Shown: piece by piece, positions 1,420-59,017 of the stretch | Numbering within the stretch: the first letter of the stretch is position 1 | Layout of the letters: each line of letters opens with the position of its first letter | From: Parcubacteria group bacterium GW2011_GWC1_45_13 | Lineage (GTDB): Bacteria > Patescibacteriota > Minisyncoccia > UBA11713 > 2-01-FULL-45-33 | Reading direction: 5' to 3' | NCBI GenBank assembly: GCA_001001285.1 | Contig: LCKG01000003.1 | Location: forward strand, 27,746 to 91,745 | Length of the DNA: 64,000 nucleotides | The notes under the pieces: generated by a model | The model's database searches: none | What the model saw: only the letters and a program-made list of their open reading frames with translations | What the model was told of the DNA's origin: nothing | Position numbers and translations under genes: made by a program

Positions 1420-3882
1420 ATGGCTCAAAAAGAACCTGAAAAATTACAGGCGATAGGGACGGTTTCGCCAAGAGAGATCGTAACCGAAATGCAGGAGTCT
1501 TATTTGGACTACGCCATGTCGGTTATTGTTTCGCGTGCCTTGCCGGACGTCAGAGACGGCTTAAAACCAGTGCACCGCCGGATTCTTTTTGCCATGCACG
1601 AAATGGGCCTTACGCATTCCGCCAAAACCAAAAAATCCGCTAATGTTGTAGGCGAGGTTTTGGGAAAATATCATCCGCACGGCGACGTTGCCGTTTATGA
1701 TTCATTGGTGAGAATGGCGCAGGATTTTTCCTTGAGATATCCATTGATAGAAGGGCAGGGGAATTTCGGGTCAATTGATGGCGATTCGGCTGCCGCCATG
1801 CGCTACACCGAGGCCAGAATGTCCGCCATTACCACAGAGATGCTCCGGGACATTGAAAAAGAAACAATTGATTTTATTCCGAATTATGACGGGTCAAAAT
1901 TTGAGCCAGTCGTTTTGCCAGCCGCGATTCCGCAACTTTTACTCAACGGTTCCATGGGAATTGCCGTCGGCATGGCCACCAATATTCCACCGCATAATTT
2001 AACGGAAGTCGCGGAGGCGGCGCTCCATTTGATGACGCATCCTAAAGCAACGGTGGAGGACCTTACGGAATTCGTGAAAGGGCCGGATTTCCCGACGGGC
2101 GGAATAATTTTCAATAAAAAAGAAATTTTGCAGGCTTACGCAACCGGCCGCGGCGGAGTTATAAATAGGGGGGAGGCAGAAATTTTGGAGAAAAAAAATG
2201 GCGAATGGCAGATTGTCATCACATCCATTCCTTATTTGGTGAATAAATCGGAGCTGATTGTGAAAATGGCAGATTTGGTGCATGACAAAAAGCTGGAAGG
2301 CATCCGCGATATAAGGGACGAGTCCGACAAAGAGGGCCTCCGCGTGGCGATTGACCTCAAGCGCGACTCTTATCCCCAAAAAGTTTTGAATAATCTTTAT
2401 AAGCATACCGATTTGGAACGCGCCTTCCATTTTAATATGATCGCTTTGGTTGACGGGGGGCGCCAGCCGCAGACACTTTCTTTAAAAAGTATTCTTGAAG
2501 AATTCATCAAACATCGCCGGATAATAATTGAACGAAGGTCAAAATTTGATTTAGCGCGGGCCCAGGACAGGGAGCATATTCTTTTGGGGCTTAAAAAAGC
2601 GTTGGACCATATTGACGCGATAATTAAAACGATAAAAGGTTCCGCCAGCAAAGAAGAGGCGCATAAAAATTTAATTAAAAAATTTGATTTGTCCGACAAG
2701 CAGGCCTCGGCGATTTTAGAAATGCGCCTCTCGGCTTTGGCAGGCTTGGAAAGGCAGAAAATTGAAGACGAGCTGAAAGAAAAACAAAAATTAATCAAAG
2801 AATTAAAAGCGCTTTTGGCGGACGCCAAAAAAATAGACGAAGTCGTGAAAGACGAACTTTCGGAAGCCAAGAAAAAATACGGAGATGAGAGAAAAACAAA
2901 AGTTATTTCGGGAGCCGCGAAAATAATTTCGGCGGAAGATTTGGTGCCGGAAGAAGAAACCATTTTAATTTTAACGCAGGGCGGATACGTAAAAAGAATT
3001 AAGCCGGACGAATACCGCGTCCAGCGAAGGGGCGGCAAAGGAGTCATCGGCGTTACCACAAAAGAGGAAGACGTTGCCTACGAATTTATTTCCGGCAACA
3101 CACACGATGACCTTTTATTTTTTACGAATCTAGGAAAAGTTTATCAAACCAAAATGTACGAAATTCCGGAAGGCACGCGCCAGTCAAAAGGAAAAGCGAT
3201 TGCCAATTTCCTTTCTTTGTCTGCGGACGAAAAAGTTACTTCCGTCCTGCCGGTTCCAAAAACAAAAAAGGGCCAGGCGAGCTACGTAATTTTGTCCACC
3301 CAAAAAGGAGTGACAAAAAAAGTTGATTCCAAAGATTTTGAAGACGTGCGCCATTCCGGAATCCGAGCGATTAACCTCCAAAAGGGGGACACTTTGCGCT
3401 TCGCGCGGGTCGTAATGCCTGGCGAAGAGGTCGCGCTCTCTTCCAAGCTGGGGCAGGCAGTCCGTTTCAAAGAAAAAGACATCCGCCCGATGGGCAGAAC
3501 CGCCCAGGGAATCCGCGGGATGCGCCTTAAAAAGAACGATGAGATAGTTGGGATGGATATTTTGCCGCAAAACGCGAAAAAATTGGAAATTTTATCGGTT
3601 TCCCAGCAGGGCTACGGCAAAAAAACAAATATAACCCAATATCGCCTCCAAAAACGCGGTGGGTCGGGAGTTAAAACATGCAAAGTCACTTCCAAAACCG
3701 GACCTCTGGTTTCTGTTCAGGTTGTGAAAGAAGACCAGCAGGAAATTATCGCGATTTCCAAAAAGGGGCAGGTCATCCGCGCGCCGCTTTCGCAGATTCC
3801 TTCGCTTTCGCGCGCCACGCAGGGCGTGAGAATTATGAAAGTGAACGCAGGAGACGCTGTGGCTTCGGTAACTCTTTTGTAA
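1420..3882 (+). CDS. gyrA: DNA gyrase subunit A
   Basis: Contains AMHEMGL…HPHGD…[42 protein letters not shown], with the catalytic Tyr (…AMRYTEAR…). Length 820 aa, with a C-terminal beta-pinwheel region. Confidence 0.95.
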
Positions 3883-3883
3883 A

Positions 3884-4507
3884 ATGGATTTGCGGGAGAC
3901 ATACAATAAAATAGCGGAGGACTGGCATAAAGATCATAAACAGGATAATTGGTGGGTTGAGGGAACAAATGAATTTATCTCATTTTTAAAACCAAATAGT
4001 TTGGTGCTTGACGCTGGCTGCGGCGCCGGCACTAAATCTAAATATTTAATAGACAGAGGATTAAAAGTTGTCGGAATAGATTTTTCAGACAAGCTGATTG
4101 AAATAGCAAAAAGAGAAGCGCCTTCCGGAAACTTTTTTGTGATGGATATTAATGAAGCGGACAAACTGAAAGAAAATTTTGACGGGATTTTTGCGCAAGC
4201 GGTTTTACTGCATATTCAAAAAAAAGACGCGGAAAAAACATTAAATAAATTATTGGGCGTATTAAAACCCGGCGGATATTTATACATAGCAGTCAAAGAA
4301 AAAAAATTCGGCGGCGCGGATGAAGAAATAAAAACAGAAAACGACTACGGATATCCTTACGAAAGATTTTTCAGCTATTTTACTTTGGACGAAATAAAAA
4401 ATTTGATGATAGAGTTGGGATTGGCTATTAATTATGAAAATATATCTCAATACGGGTATACAAGATGGATACAGGTCATTGGGCAACAAAATAAAAATGG
4501 AAAATAA
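3884..4507 (+). CDS. Class I SAM-dependent methyltransferase
   Basis: Motif I VLDAGCGAGTKSKYL is followed by a VVGIDFS acidic loop. The gene is AT-rich. Confidence 0.8.
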   Translation: MDLRETYNKIAEDWHKDHKQDNWWVEGTNEFISFLKPNSLVLDAGCGAGTKSKYLIDRGLKVVGIDFSDKLIEIAKREAPSGNFFVMDINEADKLKENFDGIFAQAVLLHIQKKDAEKTLNKLLGVLKPGGYLYIAVKEKKFGGADEEIKTENDYGYPYERFFSYFTLDEIKNLMIELGLAINYENISQYGYTRWIQVIGQQNKNGK

Positions 4508-4892: not shown

Positions 4893-7676
4893 ATGAGCGA
4901 GGCGGGAAGCGTAGTTTTTAAAGAGGAATCAAAGAAAGGCGCGCTGTTTGGAGCGCGCGGGCTTAATTTTAAGCGCTATTTTACTAAGGAAGGCGTCCAT
5001 CCCTATGATGAAATAGCGTGGGAAAAACGCGTTGCCCGCATCACCTCATCCAAAGGCGAGGTTATTTTTGAGCAAAAGGGCGTTGAGGCGCCGAAATTTT
5101 GGTCGCAGACGGCAACGGACATTGTCGCCGAGAAATATTTTATGGGGCATGTCGGCAAGCCCGGCAGGGAGTGGTCCGTAAAACAGCTTATAGACCGCGT
5201 TGCAAATACGATGGCGGACTGGGGCAGGCAAGGCGGTTGTTTCGCGGACGAAAAAGACGCGCAAATTTTCAACGAGGAGCTTAAATGGCTATTGGTCAAC
5301 CAGTACGCCTCATTTAATTCGCCGGTTTGGTTTAATGTCGGGGTTGAAAAGAAACCGCAGTGCTCGGCCTGTTTCATTTTGTCCATTACGGACGATAAAG
5401 AGTCCATTGCCGAATGGTATAGGACAGAGATGATGATTTTTTCAGGCGGCTCCGGCGCGGGAATAAATATTTCGCCTCTGCGCTCGTCCAAAGAAAATAT
5501 CGCCGGCCGCGGGAAATCGTCAGGCCCGGTGTCTTTTATGAAAGGAGCCGACGCGATTGCCGGCACAATCCGTTCCGGCGGCAAGACGCGAAGGGCGGCT
5601 AAGATGGTGATTTTAAACGCAAGCCACCCCGATATAAAAACTTTCATAGTTTCCAAATGGAAGGAGGAAGAAAAAGCAAAAGCGCTTATCTCTATGGGTT
5701 ATAACGACGACATTGACGGCGACGTCTATTCAAACATTTTTTTCCAAAACGCCAACAATTCCGTCCGCGCCACGGATGATTTTATGAACGCGGTTTTGGA
5801 AGACAAAAATTGGGAACTCCGAATGATAAAGACAGGCGAGGTTGCCGAGACATTAAAAGCAAGGGACCTTATGAAGCTCATCGCCGAGGCGGCTTGGCAC
5901 TGCGCCGACCCGGGCATGCAATTTGATACGACGATTAATAAATGGCACACCGCTCCCGCCGCAGGCCGCATCAACGGCTCCAACCCGTGCTCGGAATACA
6001 TGCACTTGGACGATTCCGCCTGCAATCTTGCTTCACTAAATCTTCTTAAATTTTTAAATCCGCCGGCTGGCGGAGGCAATTTTGACCACGAGGCGTTTAA
6101 AAAAGCCGTCGGCATTTTTATCACGGCGCAGGATATTACCGTGGACAATTCTTCCTACCCCACGGCTAAAATTGAACAAAACGCCCGCGCTTTCCGCGAA
6201 CTTGGCCTGGGGTACACGAATCTCGGCGCGCTTTTAATGCAGATGGGCTTTCCTTATGATTCAGACGCCGCGCGGGCTTGGGCGGCCGCGATAACTTCAA
6301 TGATGACCGGCGAGGCCTACAATATTTCCACGCGTGTTGCCGAAGCAGTCGGCCCATTTTCCGGATATGAAAAAAATAAGGAGCCGATGCTCGGCGTAAT
6401 CCGCATGCACGGCGAAGAAGCAAAAAAAATAAGCAAAAAGTATCTGCCGGCGGACGTTTGGGAATCCGCCCAAACGCCTTGGGCCGAGGCTCAAAAGCGC
6501 GGCCAGCTCTCTGGCGTCCGGAATTCCCAAGTGAGCGTTTTGGCGCCAACCGGCACGATTTCTTTCATGATGGACGCCACAACCACTGGCATTGAGCCGG
6601 CGTTTTCGCTCGTCGCCTACAAAAAAATGGTGGGCAGAGGATTTTTGAAAATCGCGAACACCTCCGTTGAGCCTGCGCTCAAAAATTTGGGATATAAAGA
6701 ACAAGAAGTCAAAGAAATAATGGATTATATTTTAGCGCATGACGGCATTGAAGGCGCCCCGCATCTTAAAGAAAAAGACATCGCCGTTTTTGATTGTGCC
6801 GTGAACGCCCCCGGCGGCAAGCGAGCCATCCATTATTCCGGCCACATCCGCATGATAGCCGCCGCGCAACCTTTCATTTCCGGAGCGATTTCCAAAACAG
6901 TGAATCTCCCCGAGTCGGCGACGGTTGAGGATATTATGAACACCTACATCGACGCTTGGAAAATGGGGCTTAAGGCGATCGCAATTTACCGCGACAAATC
7001 CAAAGGCGCCCAGCCCCTAAACACTTCCAAGGCAAAGCCATCAAGCGAAAGCGCTGTTGGTGCCAAAGAGGCCGCGCCGTCGGAAGTTGAAAGAAAAAAA
7101 TTGCCGTCAAACGTAAAATCTCTACGCCATAAATTTTCCATCGCAGGGCACGAGGGCTATATCCATTGCGGAATGTATGAAGACGGCAAATTGGGCGAAA
7201 TTTTTATCCGCGTGGCCAAAGAGGGCTCTACCATATCCGGTCTTCTGGATGCCATAGGCGTGCTCATGTCCGTCGCGCTCCAATCGGGAGTTCCGGTTGA
7301 AACTATCGTCAGAAAATTCGTCCATTCCCGTTTTGAGCCGGCCGGATACACAGAAAATCAGGATATTCCGGTTGCCAAATCAATTTTGGATTACATTGGA
7401 AAATTTTTAGCGCTCAATTTTCTTTCTCCAGATGACCAAGCTTCTTTCGGCATCTATTCGCATTCAAAAGAAGCGGAAACTGTCGTGGCGGAGCCTTTTA
7501 AGCTCAAAGAACAACCTAAGCTTTCCTCTCCGGCTTCCGTGCCAGCGGCGTACGACCGCGCTAAAATTTTCGCCTACCAGGATGCTCCCGCCTGCCGTTG
7601 CGGCGCGATTATGATCCGCACCGGCTCCTGCTACACCTGCCCCTCTTGCGGCGAAAACCTCGGGAGCTGCTCGTAG
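4893..7676 (+). CDS. nrdJ: Adenosylcobalamin-dependent (class II) ribonucleoside reductase
   Basis: Active-site region CSACFIL…; GGSGAGINISPLR…GPVSFMKG; C-terminal Cys-rich tail CRCGAIMIRTGSCYTCPSCG typical of NrdJ. 927 aa. Confidence 0.9.
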   Translation: MSEAGSVVFKEESKKGALFGARGLNFKRYFTKEGVHPYDEIAWEKRVARITSSKGEVIFEQKGVEAPKFWSQTATDIVAEKYFMGHVGKPGREWSVKQLIDRVANTMADWGRQGGCFADEKDAQIFNEELKWLLVNQYASFNSPVWFNVGVEKKPQCSACFILSITDDKESIAEWYRTEMMIFSGGSGAGINISPLRSSKENIAGRGKSSGPVSFMKGADAIAGTIRSGGKTRRAAKMVILNASHPDIKTFIVSKWKEEEKAKALISMGYNDDIDGDVYSNIFFQNANNSVRATDDFMNAVLEDKNWELRMIKTGEVAETLKARDLMKLIAEAAWHCADPGMQFDTTINKWHTAPAAGRINGSNPCSEYMHLDDSACNLASLNLLKFLNPPAGGGNFDHEAFKKAVGIFITAQDITVDNSSYPTAKIEQNARAFRELGLGYTNLGALLMQMGFPYDSDAARAWAAAITSMMTGEAYNISTRVAEAVGPFSGYEKNKEPMLGVIRMHGEEAKKISKKYLPADVWESAQTPWAEAQKRGQLSGVRNSQVSVLAPTGTISFMMDATTTGIEPAFSLVAYKKMVGRGFLKIANTSVEPALKNLGYKEQEVKEIMDYILAHDGIEGAPHLKEKDIAVFDCAVNAPGGKRAIHYSGHIRMIAAAQPFISGAISKTVNLPESATVEDIMNTYIDAWKMGLKAIAIYRDKSKGAQPLNTSKAKPSSESAVGAKEAAPSEVERKKLPSNVKSLRHKFSIAGHEGYIHCGMYEDGKLGEIFIRVAKEGSTISGLLDAIGVLMSVALQSGVPVETIVRKFVHSRFEPAGYTENQDIPVAKSILDYIGKFLALNFLSPDDQASFGIYSHSKEAETVVAEPFKLKEQPKLSSPASVPAAYDRAKIFAYQDAPACRCGAIMIRTGSCYTCPSCGENLGSCS

Positions 7677-7808
7677 CGGTATGGGCAAATAACATGGGCT
7701 TGCTCAATAAACACTTCTGGAAATTTTTCGCGGGGCTGATCGCGCTGATCTCTATTGGATTTTTAACGATTTACGCCACCGATTTTTACGCGAAAAAACA
7801 ATCTGCCG

Positions 7809-8087: not shown

Positions 8088-8098
8088 TTTATATATCA

Positions 8099-8124
8099 GC
8101 TAATTCGTGAGAATTAGAGAATAG
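8099..8124 (+). promoter_or_regulatory. 26-bp repeat GCTAATTCGTGAGAATTAGAGAATAG containing palindrome CTAATTC-N4-GAATTAG (copy 1, overlapping the arsR-family gene promoter)
   Basis: Exact duplicate at 8473..8498. A TAGAAT -10 lies at 8138..8143, only 6 nt before the ATG, so the mRNA is near-leaderless. Confidence 0.6.
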
Positions 8125-8149
8125 TTGCGGGGTGTGCTAGAATTTTATT

Positions 8150-8413: not shown

Positions 8414-8472
8414 TGCAATTTTTATGCTTTTATATTTTTGCTTATACCTTTTGTTGTGCTTCTTGTGTCTCG

Positions 8473-8498
8473 GCTAATTCGTGAGAATTAGAGAATAG
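8473..8498 (+). promoter_or_regulatory. 26-bp palindromic repeat, copy 2 (between arsR-like gene and putative endonuclease gene)
   Basis: Identical 26-mer to 8099..8124. Confidence 0.6.
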
Positions 8499-8620
8499 AT
8501 GGGGTTGGGGGAGGCGGGTTTTGGTTTGATAAATAAATGATTTTGTGCGAGAATTTGAGGGAGTGTTGATTTTCGTCTTTAAAATATATTAAATTTGGTA
8601 TATTCTAGAAAAATCAACTC

Positions 8621-29832: not shown

Positions 29833-29858
29833 TAGCTCAAAATCGCCGGGGTTTCAAG
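29833..29858 (+). repeat. Cassette-boundary repeat copy A (TAGCTCAAAATCGCCGGGGTTTCAAG)
   Basis: 26/26 identical to 31086..31111. Located just 3' of the toxin gene on the minus strand. Confidence 0.7.
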
Positions 29859-30457: not shown

Positions 30458-30530
30458 ATCGCCAGGATTTCAAGCTTGCCTGCCCCGCCTACCGGCAGGC
30501 AGGCGGCAAGCGGGGCGAGGGGGGTTATTT
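30458..30530 (+). repeat. Cassette-boundary repeat copy B with GC-rich hairpin
   Basis: ATCGCCAGGATTTCAAGCTTGCCT…ACCGG matches copy C. The extra CCTGCCCCGCC…GGCGGCAAGCGGGG imperfect palindrome overlaps the GNAT 3' end. Confidence 0.6.
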
Positions 30531-31085: not shown

Positions 31086-31140
31086 TAGCTCAAAATCGCC
31101 GGGGTTTCAAGCTTGCCTACCGGTAGATCTCGGCGAGGAG
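31086..31140 (+). repeat. Cassette-boundary repeat copy C (head of A + tail of B)
   Basis: TAGCTCAAAATCGCCGGGGTTTCAAG followed by CTTGCCTACCGGTAG, immediately 5' of the GNAT start codon. Confidence 0.65.
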
Positions 31141-34939: not shown

Positions 34940-34998
34940 CGAAGCGAAGAAGGGCTGCGGGACTAGGATTCGGACCTAGATTACACGGTTCAGAGCCG
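34940..34998 (-). pseudogene. Degenerate tRNA-Gln-like 3' fragment (anticodon arm CUG + T-arm + acceptor 3' strand)
   Basis: Minus strand reads CACGG-CTCTGAA-CCGTG TAATC CTAGG-TCCGAAT-CCTAG TCCCGCA G. The T-loop has C at position 55 and no D-stem partner, so it is a fragment. Confidence 0.4.
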
Positions 34999-34999
34999 T

Positions 35000-35040
35000 G
35001 CGCCCCAGCCTTTTCGGCGGGTCGCCGAGGAGGCGACTAC
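35000..35040 (-). repeat. 41-nt direct repeat X, copy 2 (two small hairpins: TCGCC-N5-GGCGA and CCCGCC-GAAAA-GGC(T)GGG)
   Basis: About 36/41 identical to 35422..35462. Both copies are preceded on the minus strand by GGTAG. Confidence 0.6.
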
Positions 35041-35055
35041 CACTTCCGCACAAAA

Positions 35056-35126
35056 CTGGGAGGCCTGGATTCGAACCAGGGTTATGCGGTTCAGAGCCGC
35101 ATGTCCTACCGCTAGACGACCTCCCA
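35056..35126 (-). tRNA. tRNA-Gln (anticodon CTG)
   Basis: Reverse complement: TGGGAGG TC GTC TAGCGGTAG GAC A TGCGG-CTCTGAA-CCGCA TAACC CTGG-TTCGAAT-CCAGG CCTCCCA G. Flanked by a perfect 14-bp inverted repeat (35042..35055 and 35128..35141). Confidence 0.85.
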
Positions 35127-35145
35127 GTTTTGTGCGGAAGTCTTT

Positions 35146-35421
35146 TTACTCCATTAAATAATTTTTCAACTTACCTTTTAATACTTCTCTACCATATCCT
35201 GTTTTATAAAATTTTTCTCCGGTAGTTGCATCTTTCTTGTCTAAATACGCTTCATAATATATTAGTTTGAAAGGCCTGTTTTTACTGGAATATCCGCCGC
35301 CCTTGCCGGAGTTATGTTCTGATACTCTCTGTTTTAAATCTTCGGTAAAGCCAACATAATTTCGGCCGTTTTTCAAACTTTTTAATACATATACGTAAAA
35401 CATGATTTTTATTGAAGCCAT
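35146..35421 (-). CDS. GIY-YIG nuclease superfamily protein (YhbQ-like) paralog 3
   Basis: …MFYVYVLKSLKNGRNYVGFTEDLKQRVSEHN…FKLIYYE. The true start may be the second ATG (35403). Confidence 0.75.
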   Translation of the reverse strand: MASIKIMFYVYVLKSLKNGRNYVGFTEDLKQRVSEHNSGKGGGYSSKNRPFKLIYYEAYLDKKDATTGEKFYKTGYGREVLKGKLKNYLME

Positions 35422-35462
35422 GCGTCCCCGCCTTTTCGGCGGGTCGCCGATGAGGCGACTAC
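35422..35462 (-). repeat. 41-nt direct repeat X, copy 1, immediately 5' of GIY-YIG paralog 3
   Basis: See copy 2. Preceded (35459..35479 on minus) by a tRNA 5'-half-like sequence TGCGGGATCGTCTAACGGTAG. Confidence 0.6.
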
Positions 35463-35579
35463 CGTTAGACGATCCCGCAATAATGCGTATAATATGTAGA
35501 GGTTAGCAAAAAAATTTTGGTTTGACAAAGTTTAGACATTTGTTAATGTTTAAGTGGTTTTGATTTTTGGGAGGTGCGC

Positions 35580-50244: not shown

Positions 50245-50322
50245 ATGATTTGCTATAATAAATAAATGGCGAAAAAGAAACGGAATAACGGAAAAAATGG
50301 AGCGGGGATTGGGGCGTGGCAT
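50245..50322 (+). repeat. Duplicate of ftsK promoter + first 19 codons (about 94% identical to 51328..51405)
   Basis: TTTGCTATAAT(A/T)AAATAAATGGCGAAAAAGAAA…GGAGCGGGGATTGGGGCGTGGCAT is shared. Here the open frame MAKKKRNNGKNGAGIGAWHWA stops, and the PaaX-like ORF starts (GTG) inside the duplicated segment. Confidence 0.8.
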
Positions 50323-50816
50323 TGGGCTTAGCGGCTCATTCTCCTCGAAGGCGAAGAAGGGTGTTTAAAAATATACCTTTAGAATTTAACAAAATTGACC
50401 GGCGCGTTCTTCAACGCATTATACGCGAATTCCATCGCGATAGACTGGTAGATTTTAAGGAAGATGGGGATAACGGCGTTCGGATTATTCTTACAGAGCA
50501 GGGCGTCAAAAAGGCGTTGCGGTATAATATTGATGCCATCTTTATTGAAGAGCCTAAAAAATGGGATGGAAAATGGAGGATCGTGGTTTTTGATATTCCG
50601 GAAAAAATGAAAAAGGCTCGCGAGGCGCTGCGTGACAAACTGCGCAAACTCGGTTTTTATCAACTTCAAAAAAGCGTTTTTGTTTTCCCCTTCGCGTGCC
50701 ATGATGAAATAAATTTTATTGTTGAATTTTTTGAATTACGCTCCAATGTCCGCATTATGACCGTGTTGGACATTACTAATGAAGCCGAACTAAAATTGCA
50801 TTTTGGGCTTTCTTAA
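50316..50816 (+). CDS. PaaX-like transcriptional regulator family protein (paralog 1, N-terminally remodelled)
   Basis: wHTH (RVLQRIIREFHRDRLVDF) plus KWDGKWRIVVFDIPEKMKKAREALRDKLRKLGFYQLQKSVFVFP (the PaaX C-domain WDGKW motif). GTG start. Confidence 0.6.
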   Translation: MALGLAAHSPRRRRRVFKNIPLEFNKIDRRVLQRIIREFHRDRLVDFKEDGDNGVRIILTEQGVKKALRYNIDAIFIEEPKKWDGKWRIVVFDIPEKMKKAREALRDKLRKLGFYQLQKSVFVFPFACHDEINFIVEFFELRSNVRIMTVLDITNEAELKLHFGLS

Positions 50817-51250: not shown

Positions 51251-51346
51251 TTGAATTTGGGTTTTTCGTGTGGGCTTTCTCGTCATTGCTATCGAGAAGG
51301 CCTTTTTATTTACCTCAAAGAGCTTTATTTTGCTATAATTAAATAA

Positions 51347-53566
51347 ATGGCGAAAAAGAAAAGGAATAACGGGAAAAGCGGAGCGGGGATTGGGGCGTGG
51401 CATCAGAATTTAAGGCCGGAGACCAAGCATTCGCTTTGGGCGGTTTTATCTTTTCTGGCGGCGGTGCTTTTGGCGCTGGCTTATTTCGGCAAAGCCGGGC
51501 TGGTAGGGGACGCAATCCAAAAAACTTTGCTTTTGGTTTTCGGAAAAGGTTTTTTTCTCGTCTCTCTGGCTTTTCTTCTGGCCGGGTTATCGTTTCTTTT
51601 TGCTTTGGGAAACCATCTGCTTATTACCACTATTCTCGGCGGAGTTTTATTTTTAATAAGTTCTTTGGGGCTTTCCGATATTTTATTCGGCGCTTACACC
51701 GGCGGGTATGTCGGCTTTTTATTTTCTTTCCCATTTTTGAAATTATTTGATTTTTGGGCGTCTCTGATAATTTTTTCCGCCCTGCTTCTGGCGTCCTTCC
51801 TGATTATGCTTAATGTTTCTTTAAAGCCGAAAAGAAAAGAGAAAGCAGAAAGAGAAAAAGCGGAAGAAAAAATCTTCGCGCCAATGCCAGCTGTTCCCTC
51901 GCTTTCTTTGCCTCCGGCAAAAATTGAAGAAAAAAAGATTGAAGAAAATGACGAAGAAACGTCCATTTTGTCTTTAATCCCCAAAAATATTTTCAGAAAA
52001 TCATACAAGCCGCAGAAACTTGAACTTGCCAAAGAATACGCCACTCCGCCGTTGGACCTTTTGGAGGACGACAAAGGCACGCCTTCATCGGGCGACATCA
52101 AAGCCAACGCCAATATTATAAAAAGGACATTGCAAAATTTTGGTATTGACGTGGAGATGTCCGAGGTGAACGTTGGCCCTTCGGTTACGCAGTACACTTT
52201 AAAACCCGCAGAGGGAGTAAAGCTTGCCCGCATCACGGCTTTGCATAACGACTTGGCGTTGGCTTTGGCGGCGCATCCTTTGAGAATTGAAGCGCCCATT
52301 CCCAGCAAATCTTTGGTTGGAATAGAAGTGCCAAACCGCTCTATTGCTTTGGTGGGGCTTCGAAGCCTCTTAGGCATGGATGAATTTAAAAACGGCATGC
52401 CGCTTACTTTTGCGCTGGGCAGGGATGTTTCTGGCAGGGCGGTTTTCGCCGATATCGCCAAAATGCCGCATCTTTTGGTGGCTGGAGCCACCGGTTCGGG
52501 AAAATCAATTACTATGCACACTTTAATTGTGAGTTTGCTTTATAAAAATTCTCCGGAATTCGTGCGCTTTTTAATGATAGACCCTAAAAGGGTGGAGCTT
52601 TCCGTGTATAAAAATCTTCCGCACCTTCTGGCGCCGGTAATCACTGACGCCAAAAAGGCCATTATGTCTTTAAGATGGGCCGTCCGCGAAATGGAAAGGC
52701 GATACGAAAAACTTTCCGAGGTCGGCGCCAGGGATATTGTTTCCTACAACACAGAAATGATAAAGGAAAAAGCGCACGATGAAATTTTGCCAAATCTCAT
52801 AATAATTATTGACGAGCTGGCCGACCTTATGGCTTCCTATCCGCGTGAAATGGAGGCCTCAATCGTGCGCTTGGCGCAGATGTCGCGGGCGGTGGGAATT
52901 CATTTGGTAGTTTCCACCCAGCGCCCATCGGTTGAGGTGATTACCGGTTTAATCAAAGCGAATATTACTTCAAGAATCGCTTTGCAGGTGGCTTCCGGCG
53001 TGGATTCGCGCACAATTTTGGATATGTCTGGAGCCGAAAAACTTTTGGGCAACGGCGACATGCTTTTTTTGGCGGGGGACACTTCTAAACCGAGAAGAAT
53101 CCAAGCGGCATTTATATCAGAAAAGGAAGTGAAAAAAGTCGCGGCGTATGTCGCGGAGTCCGCCGGAGAATTTTTGGCCGAAGGCGCCCGCCTGCCGGAC
53201 GGGCATGGAGAAATTGATTTTGAATTGAAATTGCCGTTAGCCAACGGAGCCGGCGGAGATTTGGGAGAAAATGAGGATATGGACGACGAACTTTATGAAG
53301 AGGCCAAAAGGCTTATTGTGGACGCGCAAAAAGCTTCGGCGTCATACCTTCAAAGAAGGCTGCGGGTTGGCTACGCCAGAGCCGCGCGGCTCTTGGATAT
53401 GTTGGAAGCGCAGGGCGTAATCGGCCCCGGCGAAGGGGCGAAGCCGAGGGAGGTTTTGATTAAAAAATCAGCGGAATCAATCGCGATTGGCAAAACTTTG
53501 GAGCCGGAAGATTTTGGAGATGACGAAGAAAAATCCGATACTCCTTACACTAACTTTGATTTTTGA
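51347..53566 (+). CDS. ftsK: DNA translocase FtsK/SpoIIIE
   Basis: N-terminal TM region. Motor domain with Walker A GATGSGKS, Walker B IIIIDELADL and the C-terminal gamma winged helix. The TGcTATAAT promoter gives a near-leaderless start. Confidence 0.9.
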   Translation: MAKKKRNNGKSGAGIGAWHQNLRPETKHSLWAVLSFLAAVLLALAYFGKAGLVGDAIQKTLLLVFGKGFFLVSLAFLLAGLSFLFALGNHLLITTILGGVLFLISSLGLSDILFGAYTGGYVGFLFSFPFLKLFDFWASLIIFSALLLASFLIMLNVSLKPKRKEKAEREKAEEKIFAPMPAVPSLSLPPAKIEEKKIEENDEETSILSLIPKNIFRKSYKPQKLELAKEYATPPLDLLEDDKGTPSSGDIKANANIIKRTLQNFGIDVEMSEVNVGPSVTQYTLKPAEGVKLARITALHNDLALALAAHPLRIEAPIPSKSLVGIEVPNRSIALVGLRSLLGMDEFKNGMPLTFALGRDVSGRAVFADIAKMPHLLVAGATGSGKSITMHTLIVSLLYKNSPEFVRFLMIDPKRVELSVYKNLPHLLAPVITDAKKAIMSLRWAVREMERRYEKLSEVGARDIVSYNTEMIKEKAHDEILPNLIIIIDELADLMASYPREMEASIVRLAQMSRAVGIHLVVSTQRPSVEVITGLIKANITSRIALQVASGVDSRTILDMSGAEKLLGNGDMLFLAGDTSKPRRIQAAFISEKEVKKVAAYVAESAGEFLAEGARLPDGHGEIDFELKLPLANGAGGDLGENEDMDDELYEEAKRLIVDAQKASASYLQRRLRVGYARAARLLDMLEAQGVIGPGEGAKPREVLIKKSAESIAIGKTLEPEDFGDDEEKSDTPYTNFDF

Positions 53567-56924: not shown

Positions 56925-57971
56925 CTATATTTTAAACTCAATGACATCGCCATCTTTCACTATATAATCTTTGCCTTGGGAGCCTAGCCAGCCTAATTCC
57001 CGAGCTTTTGTCCATGAGCTCGCTTCCATAAGCTTTTCCCAAAATACAACATCGGCACGGATAAAGTTTTCCTCAAAATCGCTGTGAATGGCGCGCCCGG
57101 CACGTTTGGCGGTTGAACCTTGAGGAATGGTCCATGCGCGCGTTTCTTCCTCGCCGGCCCCGACGTTCTGTCGGGGCGCCGACTTCGTTATTTCTTTTAT
57201 ATAGTGCGTCGGCGTGGTAAAAAATGTAATCAATCCTAAAAGTTCGTACGCGGCTTTTATGAGTTTCGGAAGTTGTGGTTCAATACTCAGCTCTTTTCTC
57301 TCTTCTTCGGACATCGCTGAAACATCGTTTTCTTGGGCAATATCTAGTACCACAGAATTTGGAAATCGGAAGTCAGAGGTTAGATTGCTTGTTGCTGAAA
57401 CATTGAAAACGTAAATGGTGGGTTTAAAAGATAAAAGCTGGTATTGTTTGGCCACGCCGGAAGGTATTTTTTCAAAATTCTCTAACGCGCTGACAAGTTC
57501 GGCGGCCTCTTTTTTCCCGCTTTTTGCGTCTGTTTGCGCCTTTTCTTTAATTTTTGCCACCGTCTCCAAATCTTTCAAAGCCAGCTCCGTTTTTATGGTT
57601 TCAATGTCGGAAAGGGGATTGGGTTTTCCGGAGACATGGATAATATTTTCATTTTCAAAAGCGCGGACAATATGGCAGATAGCATCCACTTCGCGTATAT
57701 GCGATAAAAATTTGTTTCCAAGCCCCTCGCCTTCCGCGGCGCCCTTAACTAGTCCCGCAATATCCACAAATTCAATTACGGCAGGCACGATTTTTTTGGA
57801 CTTAGAAAGTTTGGCCAATTTATCCAATCTTTCGTCAGGCACCTGAACCACGCCCACATTGGGGTCAATGGTGGCAAAAGGGTAGTTGGAAGTATCTACC
57901 TGTTTTTTAGTAAGCGCCTGAAAAAGCGTTGATTTTCCGACATTTGGTAGGCCGACTATGCCCATCTTCAT
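56925..57971 (-). CDS. ychF: Ribosome-binding ATPase YchF (Obg-family)
   Basis: GIVGLPNVGKSTLF plus a C-terminal TGS domain. Contains an in-frame hairpin insert (57158..57176). Confidence 0.9.
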   Translation of the reverse strand: MKMGIVGLPNVGKSTLFQALTKKQVDTSNYPFATIDPNVGVVQVPDERLDKLAKLSKSKKIVPAVIEFVDIAGLVKGAAEGEGLGNKFLSHIREVDAICHIVRAFENENIIHVSGKPNPLSDIETIKTELALKDLETVAKIKEKAQTDAKSGKKEAAELVSALENFEKIPSGVAKQYQLLSFKPTIYVFNVSATSNLTSDFRFPNSVVLDIAQENDVSAMSEEERKELSIEPQLPKLIKAAYELLGLITFFTTPTHYIKEITKSAPRQNVGAGEEETRAWTIPQGSTAKRAGRAIHSDFEENFIRADVVFWEKLMEASSWTKARELGWLGSQGKDYIVKDGDVIEFKI

Positions 57972-58007
57972 GCTCGTTATATTATCACAACTGCGTTAAA
58001 AACTGAA

Positions 58008-58043
58008 GTGCAGATTTGACAGCTATAGCGTTCAAACTTGCAC
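58008..58043 (+). promoter_or_regulatory. 36-bp imperfect palindrome GTGCAGATTTGACAGCTATAGCGTTCAAACTTGCAC (copy L)
   Basis: A direct, slightly diverged copy lies at 58669..58704. The pair brackets the PaaX-like paralog 2 gene, and copy L is also 37 nt upstream of ychF. Confidence 0.55.
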
Positions 58044-58066
58044 ACGGATTTTATAAGCCATATTCA

Positions 58067-58633
58067 TTATAAATTAAACAGTTTTTTCATATGCAGTTCG
58101 TTATCAATTTCGTTAGCCGTAACGAATCTGACATAAGGCCTTACATTAAAAAACTCTATTATAAAATCAACTTCGTCTTTACATTCGAATGGATGAACAA
58201 ATACGCTTTTTTGGAATTTTATAAATCCGGCGTTTTTTAGCACTCTGGCAAAAGCGTCTCTAGCCCTTTTCATATTTTCCGGTATATCAAAAAGAACTAT
58301 GCGCCATTTTTTGTCCCACTTTTTCATTGGCTGTATTTTTAATTCATCAATTTGGTAAGTTAGAACTTTCTTTTTGCCGCGCTCGGTTAAAATAAGTGTT
58401 GTTGCGCCGTTTACGTTATCCACAACGTCTATGAGGCGAGAGCGGTACAAGCTTTTTATGGCATTGTAAAGCGCACGTCGTTCGATATTCTTCCATTCTT
58501 TTCCGATCATTCTTATAATTTTAAAGTATCGCTGCGGTGAATGCGTAAGCCCGAGCGCCAAACCGCCCCAGAGCAAAAGCATCACTTTTTGAGCAGTTGG
58601 GCCTATTCGCGGTTCTGAATAACGTTTTCGCAT
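58067..58633 (-). CDS. PaaX-like transcriptional regulator family protein (paralog 2)
   Basis: wHTH (RALYNAIKSLYRSRLIDV) plus KKWDKKWRIVLFDIPENMKRARDAFARVLKNAGFIKFQKSVFVHP. Confidence 0.65.
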   Translation of the reverse strand: MRKRYSEPRIGPTAQKVMLLLWGGLALGLTHSPQRYFKIIRMIGKEWKNIERRALYNAIKSLYRSRLIDVVDNVNGATTLILTERGKKKVLTYQIDELKIQPMKKWDKKWRIVLFDIPENMKRARDAFARVLKNAGFIKFQKSVFVHPFECKDEVDFIIEFFNVRPYVRFVTANEIDNELHMKKLFNL

Positions 58634-58668
58634 TGATGTGATGTTATGATAGCGCGTGTTATTTGTTA

Positions 58669-58704
58669 GTGCAAGTTTGACAGCTATCGCTGTGAAATCT
58701 GCAC
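58669..58704 (+). promoter_or_regulatory. 36-bp imperfect palindrome GTGCAAGTTTGACAGCTATCGCTGTGAAATCTGCAC (copy R)
   Basis: 36 nt upstream of the PaaX-like paralog 2 start codon. Geometry (two half-sites about 26 bp apart) resembles known PaaX operators. Confidence 0.55.
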
Positions 58705-58771
58705 TAGGATTTTGGTTTGTAAATAAAAAAACCGCCGAGATGCGCTGTCCTAGGCAGAGTCTGGCGGTGTT

Positions 58772-59017
58772 TTACGATGGGCGCGATTCCTTATGCGCCG
58801 CTTGAATTGCTTTAATCAATTGCTTTATTTCCGGATTATCGCGGTAAGCTGTCTTATTAGGATCTTGGACTTCTCTTCGCCGCCAAGGATGGCCTAGATG
58901 TATGGTGGCCGCGATGTTGTTTTCTACAACAGTAATTGAGACACGGTTATGTTCTGTGTCAGAACATACTATAATCTTCCCGCCGGAACTGCTTTGAATA
59001 ATGGTATTGGTACTCAT
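58772..59017 (-). CDS. Hypothetical protein
   Basis: 81-aa ORF with no motif. Confidence 0.4.
   Translation of the reverse strand: MSTNTIIQSSSGGKIIVCSDTEHNRVSITVVENNIAATIHLGHPWRRREVQDPNKTAYRDNPEIKQLIKAIQAAHKESRPS

Follow-up and report, generated by a model that had tools for sequence, protein, structure and literature searches.

In E. coli, PaaX recognizes a 39-bp site of the form TGATTC(N27)GAATCA and represses its own promoter (Px) by occluding RNA polymerase, and both facts, which an initial annotation of the DNA studied here had invoked, agree with the published description (PMC9493321). That DNA (the window) is a 64,000-nt stretch of contig LCKG01000003.1 from the ultra-small groundwater bacterium Parcubacteria group bacterium GW2011_GWC1_45_13, and the subject of this study is a gene in it for a 188-aa PaaX-like protein together with the two 36-bp palindromes, copies L and R, that bracket it (the module). 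Like the PaaX operator, the site described here is long (~36-39 bp), two-fold symmetric and placed over what would be its gene's own promoter, a comparison that concerns geometry only. Judged from sequence comparisons, L and R are probably the cognate DNA sites (operators) of a minimal PaaX-like autoregulator encoded between them. The module consists of the following features:

58008-58043: copy L, 36-bp palindrome GTGCAGATTTGACAGCTATAGCGTTCAAACTTGCAC, starting 23 nt past the regulator stop codon and abutting the putative ychF promoter (extended repeat unit 58007-58052).
58067-58633, minus strand: regulator gene, whose 188-aa product combines a putative PaaX-like winged helix with a Cas2-like middle domain.
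58669-58704: copy R, 36-bp palindrome GTGCAAGTTTGACAGCTATCGCTGTGAAATCTGCAC, upstream of the regulator gene (extended repeat unit 58668-58713).

Reading the sequence at these positions confirmed that both copies are 36-bp palindromes of the form GTGCA-N26-TGCAC, as initially annotated, with 14 of 18 symmetric positions paired in L and 14 of 18 in R. The core they were said to share is present in both as TGACAGCTAT. The inner arms TTTGA/TCAAA had also been assigned to both copies, but the complete pair occurs in L only, since the right inner arm of R reads TGAAA. On the regulator sense strand the central 8-mer is GCGATAGC in R and GCTATAGC in L. The copies are 661 bp apart with the regulator gene enclosed, and they are 78% identical over 46 nt as direct repeats (58007-58052 and 58668-58713), while L matches the reverse complement of R at 89% over 37 nt. 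A true inverted pair was considered and rejected, because across the other loci (for example L005, L007 and L016) the direct register is usually at least as good as the inverted one. A search of the 64-kb window with GTGCA-NN-TTT-N-A-N12-T-N-AAA-NN-TGCAC, allowing up to 2 mismatches, returned L and R only (0.01 expected), and the half-site GTGCARRTTTGACAGCTAT matched only the four arms of L and R (0.04 expected).

Both palindromes are retained in relatives. Loci encoding proteins with 71-88% identity keep the PGM-module-ychF order and both copies (L001, taken from the complete genome CP066687.1, L003, L005/L013 and L006), and longer loci add trpS upstream and rpsF, ssb and recA downstream; module-ychF synteny was found in 8 genomes overall. 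Across five syntenic Giovannonibacteria genomes the mean identity is 82% for R and 83% for L, compared with 49-55% for three of the four adjoining 15-nt flanks (49-53% for the R flanks) and 70% for the flank on the ychF-promoter side. Both palindromes are thus under purifying selection.

Bracketing of the gene by a matched pair of sites is a property of the whole family. When 80 further loci encoding relatives at 46-88% amino acid identity were fetched, the upstream and downstream copies matched at 26 or more of 36 nt in 72 of the 78 loci having both flanks (only 2 of 217 random region pairs reach 25 or more). Palindromes with at least 13 of 18 paired positions are seen in 62% of the regions on either side of the gene, compared with 4% of controls. 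The arrangement is also found in unrelated gene contexts, such as between uvrA and PKD (L007-9) or between an aminotransferase gene and a convergent alaS (L010-12). The proposal of the initial annotation that these are functional sites tied to the encoded protein is therefore supported both by conservation among orthologues and by this family-wide hallmark.

The anatomy of the sites was compared in 64 non-redundant loci forming 43 clusters. Centers fall mainly into GCTATAGC (30 sites), ACGATCGT (25) and GCGATCGC (24), with 19 mixed forms, and give the consensus RCKATMGY. The C at palindrome position 16 is conserved at 99% and the central four bases are palindromic through the dyad in 91 of 128 sites (71%), which together point to a two-fold symmetric protein on duplex DNA. 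Positions 2-12 are paired in 58-91% of sites and positions 13-14 in only 41-48%, and both copies have 5' flanks rich in A (0.53) and 3' flanks rich in T (0.55). The outer half-sites do not hold the family-wide information, which sits in the central 8-mer; the arms carry 0-0.5 bit. At locus L058 the center is non-palindromic and inverted between copies, GCTCCAGC upstream and GCTGGAGT downstream (3023-3058 and 3683-3718); in L021, a close relative, both centers read GCTGGAGC. At L095 a protein of another PaaX_M subfamily (gene 1755-2450, minus strand; 231 aa with a hydrophobic N-terminal segment) is encoded divergently from ychF, and its gene is bracketed by repeats of ~45 nt (1700-1745 and 2420-2465) that form an imperfect 44-bp palindrome with center ACGATAGG, so bracketing extends beyond the 188-aa family.

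This anatomy bears on the possibility that the palindromes are nucleic-acid hairpins only, acting as bidirectional intrinsic terminators or insulators that isolate the transcription unit, with no specific protein reader. The A-rich 5' and T-rich 3' flanks at both copies are in keeping with such hairpins. However, the would-be loop is the most conserved part of the site and is itself palindromic in those 91 of 128 sites, and a loop requires neither. For this and for reasons given below, an explanation by hairpins alone is considered unlikely.

The four half-sites within a locus resemble one another, with an arm identity of 0.76 between its copies, whereas from cluster to cluster the arms differ nearly at random (0.36). 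If the sites were hairpins and nothing else there would be no reason for the copies to stay alike while both drift away from their orthologues. The trpS-PGM-module-ychF-rpsF synteny reaches modules with only 55-66% protein identity (L016, L020 and L039), and within that synteny, from the window to these three loci, the arms and even the center have changed together in all four half-sites. The two copies in L016 are identical to each other at 35 of 36 positions, with many arm positions unlike those of the window, and two paralogous modules on the one L016 contig have different palindromes. Such co-variation in situ is what would be expected if a protein and its cognate sites drifted together. 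Target-site duplication was also considered as the main cause of arm variability and was rejected because the arms change in place within one conserved synteny; a single ancient target duplication is insufficient given that arms and center changed in parallel at one syntenic locus.

Could another common host protein read the center, with the sites flanking this gene by chance? The family-wide information is indeed confined to the central RCKATMGY and the A/T flanks, and the class of center switches within protein clades, which also means that no clean residue-to-base rule can be drawn. However, hardly any of the sites lie away from members of this gene family, the arms vary in step with the protein clades, and where one contig has two paralogues their arms differ. 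A separate host reader is therefore regarded as very improbable.

The encoded protein is neither PaaX proper nor a CRISPR Cas2. Pfam PaaX_M (PF20803) matches residues 104-177 with an E-value of 6.9e-21 (74.6 bits against a 24-bit cut-off) and CRISPR_Cas2 matches more weakly (9e-6), while the PaaX N-terminal domain gives no Pfam match at E <= 0.01 in the 188-aa protein. An AlphaFold2 model (predicted local distance difference test score, pLDDT, 85) has N-terminal helices and a three-stranded wing followed by the beta-alpha-beta-beta-alpha-beta fold of Cas2. Using Foldseek, the C-terminal half matched the Cas2 chains 8ia4, 5xvn and 5zyf with probability 1.0, and E. coli W PaaX (8a39) aligned over 145 columns spanning both domains. 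A sequence profile search of the PDB gave marginal MarR and Cas2 matches only, the MarR-like part being residues 38-88 with a weak E-value of 0.045. The Cas2-like domain has FDIPE and QKSVF motifs and invariant D116, E119, K142, E154, E160 and R169. Homologues are numerous (1156 at E <= 0.001 among 1241 scored candidates), with Giovannonibacteria, Vogelbacteria and Patescibacteria group as the named sources.

PaaX proper is ruled out by a TIGR02277 score of 32.9 bits against a cut-off of 264.55 (model positions 63-153 of 279) and by the missing C-terminal domain, as the protein stops at residue 188. The description of the gene as a PaaX-like paralog thus holds for the PaaX_M domain and for the fold that aligns with PaaX, but not in the sense of PaaX itself; no paa catabolic genes are nearby, the neighbors being trpS, PGM, ychF, rpsF, ssb, rpsR and recA. 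CRISPR Cas2 is ruled out by the predicted N-terminal winged helix to which the domain is fused, by a profile match that is only partial (NCBIfam cas2 TIGR01573 is passed at 29.5 against 24.5 bits, but over 43 of 96 model positions) and by the window, in whose 64 kb no CRISPR-like repeat family was found and where the neighbors of the module, over a few kb, are housekeeping genes. Because that TIGR01573 cut-off is passed, relatives have been deposited as 'CRISPR-associated endonuclease Cas2', and the Cas2 naming of many of them is likely a systematic mis-annotation.

The arrangement of the surrounding genes and promoters suggests how the sites might work. On the minus strand the order is an 81-aa open reading frame (ORF), a GC-rich terminator, R, 35 nt, the 188-aa ORF, 23 nt, L, 36 nt and ychF, with the following features in addition to those of the module:

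58721-58772, minus strand: conventional terminator (GC-rich hairpin with a T-run) that ends the upstream 81-aa ORF just before R.
58669-58674, minus strand: putative -35 box of the regulator gene, TTGCAC, formed by the last 6 nt of R in sense orientation.
58646-58651, minus strand: putative -10 box of the regulator gene, TATCAT, separated by 17 nt from the -35 box and by 12 nt from the ATG.
58002-58007, minus strand: putative -35 box of ychF, TTCAGT, directly abutting L and followed by a 17-nt spacer.
57979-57984, minus strand: putative -10 box of ychF, TAATAT, 7 nt before the ychF ATG at 57971.
56925-57971, minus strand: ychF (Pfam MMR_HSR1 and YchF-GTPase_C), downstream of L and a likely second target.

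The terminator sequence CTCGGCGGTTTTTTTATTT is unchanged across L001-L003, and because this conventional terminator precedes R, R is dispensable for terminating the upstream gene. A search for a conserved partner gene gave none in the 81-aa ORF upstream, which is without counterpart at the other loci. The ychF boxes are kept in L001, L003 and L005 (TTCAGT or TTCAAT, and TAATAT, TAAAAT or TAAGAT), and the distance from the end of L to the ychF ATG is 36-37 nt in all but one of the 8 syntenic genomes, the exception being L016 with 14 nt. A similar promoter layout is seen more widely. Among 57 homologous loci, 34 have a TANNNT box ending 6-8 nt before the ATG, and the 3' hexamer of the upstream palindrome, often TTGCAC, TTGCAT or TTGACA, typically lies 16-17 nt upstream of that box. 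With the box ending so close to the ATG, the regulator mRNA would be leaderless. No Shine-Dalgarno sequence is present at window positions 57972-57984 and 58634-58651 or across the 57 homologous loci, where -10-like boxes stand 6-8 nt before the start, and this implies that the regulator and ychF mRNAs may both be leaderless or nearly so. The downstream neighbor is co-directional in 36 of these loci, often starting ~35 nt past the copy, and convergent in 21.

In the model proposed here, the regulator would consist of a winged helix and a Cas2-like dimerization domain without a ligand-binding C-terminal domain. The anatomy of the module, its conservation, the bracketing throughout the family, the co-variation and the lack of dispersal are observations; that the protein binds these sites, that it acts on its own gene negatively, and that contacts are split between the two domains, we infer. 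The two-fold axis of the dimer would be placed on the central 8-mer (RCKATMGY) and the two winged helices would read the lineage-specific arms ~10-15 bp to either side of the center, giving a footprint of ~36 bp. Occupancy of R would cover the -35 box (TTGCAC) of the near-leaderless regulator promoter and lead to autorepression; since R itself supplies that box, occupancy would shut the gene off. The same protein at L could gate ychF and block read-through, because L adjoins the -35 box of the putative ychF promoter, itself leaderless, and L would form a 3' hairpin of the regulator mRNA when transcribed. The initial annotation had called both copies probable autoregulatory operators, and for R the overlap with the putative -35 box of the regulator gene and the PaaX-like geometry favor this, although the operator role itself is a prediction.

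Several observations weigh against a model in which binding by the protein is all that maintains the sites. Compensated double changes between the two copies of a locus number 19, where 3.9 would be expected and none of 2000 shuffles gave more than 10; they are clearest in L048, L043, L086 and L041, in which 16-18 of 18 pairs are kept. Such changes in the arms are not predicted by a protein-only model and point to base pairing or to hairpin-templated correction. The arms are nearly devoid of family-wide information yet still palindromic. In downstream copies, read on the sense strand, G:T pairs (56.7) exceed A:C pairs (32; p ~0.01, sign test 20 vs 7), and this excess points to selection on the RNA. 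Loci with a convergent next gene (21 of 57) retain the downstream copy as well, so acting as a second operator for the neighbor cannot be its general role. The control of ychF by L that the initial annotation had foreseen is accordingly compatible with the 36-37 nt spacing in 7 of 8 syntenic genomes, but it is not the sole or defining role of that copy. A further difficulty for the model is that a 188-aa dimer would have to contact a central 8-mer as well as arms that together extend over 36 bp.

The compensated changes and the G:T excess are also what an explanation by hairpins alone would lead one to expect, as is the fold of R as sense RNA (-18.8 kcal/mol, z = -5.4). However, L folds only weakly (-16.4 kcal/mol, z = -1.4, followed by UUCAGUUUUU) and is not called by a terminator scan, and the upstream copies, which show no G:T bias, stand in the window behind a conventional terminator and overlap a putative -35 box. 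Most likely there is an added constraint on hairpin formation on top of the operator function proposed above, probably with the downstream copy serving as the 3' hairpin of the regulator transcript, and hairpin-templated correction of the palindromes is a possible further contributor.

A different interpretation is that the pair are the ends, or recombination or integration sites, of a self-contained cassette that the Cas2-like protein helps to move or excise; in a variant of this idea, an integration target was duplicated, much as insertion of a new spacer duplicates a CRISPR repeat. The layout of the sites, 14-nt inverted arms around an 8-bp core, resembles that of recombinase targets, the direct repeats include a few asymmetric flanking bases, and the modules are found in many different gene contexts. 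The invariant D116, E119, K142, E154, E160 and R169 of the Cas2-like domain, the compensated hairpin changes and the inverted center of L058 could be read in the same way. However, the core is symmetric and so could not set the direction of recombination, and neither the Pfam and NCBIfam matches nor the invariant residues of the protein include a signature of HUH/Y1, tyrosine or serine recombinases.

The distribution of the module also speaks against mobility. A clade pattern specified at 21 bases had 2 matches in 185,579 genomes, one syntenic and one solo, in a collection that excluded the source genome and CP066687.1 and with a pattern too strict to define a regulon. Only 3 extra copies were found in 624 kb of related loci, including one in the promoter region of a neighboring small gene (L031) and one inside an ORF (L090). 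As extra copies are this rare, the palindrome is not a miniature inverted-repeat transposable element (MITE); the initial annotation had named scattered copies at many unrelated loci as the sign of one, and with 2 copies in the 64-kb window and the counts just given, no such scatter is seen. Identical proteins always occur in a single context each (16, 24 and 24 contigs). The module is present in the same gene arrangement on 24 of 24 contigs with identical YchF, among which no solo-site or empty allele of the source population was seen, and three fetched copies from these independent assemblies are base-identical over 830 nt of the module region. The low copy number, and one syntenic locus held through 55% protein divergence with its sites changing in place, are likewise not what a moving cassette would predict.

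The junctions lacking the module can be argued either way. Loci L097 and L099, found via YchF homologues, have a PGM-ychF junction with no module, L093 has an unrelated ORF there, and L095 has the gene of the other PaaX_M subfamily in opposite orientation. Absence of the module in some relatives and its replacement by another PaaX_M gene would fit a cassette, but the empty junctions of L097 and L099 show no footprint. In one relative without the module (L099/L100), a 223-aa ORF with a weak Y1_Tnp (IS200-like) match lies directly downstream of ychF (3602-4273, minus strand).

Two loci bear duplications around sites or modules. In L004 (MFIM01000012.1, Giovannonibacteria RIFCSPLOWO2_02_FULL_45_28) the region 7333-7726 holds two adjacent solo palindromes of different classes, at 7631-7666 with center GCTATAGC and at 7666-7703 with center CCGATCGG, with no PaaX-like gene in view; they lie within 372 bp of sequence flanked on both sides by an exact 22-nt repeat that duplicates the 3' end of efp. 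In the window, paralog 1 (50316-50816, plus strand) is accompanied by a 64-nt direct repeat (50259-50322 and 51340-51403; 94% identical, 1081 bp apart) that duplicates the ftsK promoter and first codons. The first 64-nt copy replaces the upstream palindrome and ~24 N-terminal codons of paralog 1, and downstream only the center GCGATCGC (~50858) and a similar left arm remain, while an intact orthologue on L016 (18104-18640, minus strand) has the palindrome GTGACCATACTTTTGCGATCGCAAAAGTATGGTACT. Paralog 1 looks like a decayed module, and both duplications hint at past rearrangement. The solo sites within the 372-bp stretch and the position of paralog 1 within the 1081-bp stretch bounded by the duplicated ftsK start are thus on the side of a cassette. 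Taken with the evidence against movement, a cassette is nonetheless considered improbable, somewhat more so than hairpins alone, and operators of the encoded regulator are the preferred explanation.

Other features were observed in the course of this analysis. Two Parcubacteria contigs (L004 7360-7618 and L031 4654-4925) share a non-coding stretch of ~260 nt downstream of efp with 79% identity, and a good promoter-like sequence faces it on the minus strand. At E <= 0.1 its Rfam matches were limited to two weak, implausible ones, and no Rfam family was found at this element or at the palindromes when the window was scanned at gathering thresholds and the L004 region at E-value thresholds. The element may represent an RNA gene not described before. 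In the window, repeats of 48 nt at 92% (34994-35041 and 35416-35463) and 44 nt at 75% (34955-34998 and 35056-35099) occur by a tRNA gene (35056-35126, minus strand), and these repeats at 34955-35463 may be tRNA gene remnants or duplications. Further direct repeats in the window are one of 26 nt at 100% (29833-29858 and 31086-31111), one of 27 nt at 89% (30458-30484 and 31095-31121) and one of 42 nt at 86% (8089-8130 and 8463-8504).

Almost nothing is known about gene regulation in bacteria of the Candidate Phyla Radiation (CPR), and nothing relevant on PaaX-like or Cas2-like regulators in them, nor any description of bracketing palindromes for this protein family, was found in the searchable literature. 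The family offers ~40 distinct natural protein-site pairs with one site architecture and lineage-specific arms, and these pairs could serve as orthogonal repressor-operator parts. A sizeable conserved set of "Cas2" annotations in CRISPR-less Parcubacteria genomes probably represents DNA-binding regulators. The product of ychF is a conserved ribosome-associated ATPase, and in one Giovannonibacteria lineage the regulator is linked to its gene. A systematic second copy past the stop codon with mixed DNA- and RNA-level signatures is unusual for a transcription factor. If the idea of a cassette were true after all, the module would represent a novel type of element that excises or integrates in ultra-small bacteria or, alternatively, a living relative of the step that tied Cas2 to palindromic repeats.

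The module can be compared with several known systems. As in REP/RAYT and IS200/IS605 elements, a single small gene is flanked by imperfect palindromes capable of forming hairpins; unlike in those elements, there is no Y1_Tnp family among the Pfam and NCBIfam matches, no HUH motif among the invariant residues, and the copies are not dispersed. In lox, FRT and dif sites the core is asymmetric, whereas here it is symmetric in 71% of sites and no recombinase family is among the matches of the encoded protein. Autoregulators of the MarR type and the controllers (C-proteins) of restriction-modification systems are small helix-turn-helix dimers whose operators, 16-20 bp long, lie upstream only. The module is like them in combining a small, predicted helix-turn-helix protein, a palindrome over its own promoter and diverged specificities of paralogues, though to our knowledge no family has a matched second site copy just past the stop codon in nearly every member.

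The C-terminal half of the protein is like CRISPR Cas2 in its fold and in its FDIPE and QKSVF motifs, and the flanking repeats are like CRISPR repeats in being 36 bp long, direct and partly palindromic. However, Cas2 is a stand-alone protein of ~90-100 aa encoded beside cas1 and an array, whereas this protein is a predicted winged-helix fusion with housekeeping neighbors, and the gene itself lies between its repeats, which are spaced at 661 bp. The protein also resembles E. coli PaaX, in which a winged helix is followed by a Cas2-like middle domain, the order predicted here. The C-terminal domain that senses phenylacetyl-CoA in PaaX is absent here, as are paa genes nearby. Where the PaaX site consists of two 6-bp half-sites around N27, the site described here is palindromic throughout with a conserved central 8-mer, and, unlike in PaaX, a second copy of it follows the stop codon.

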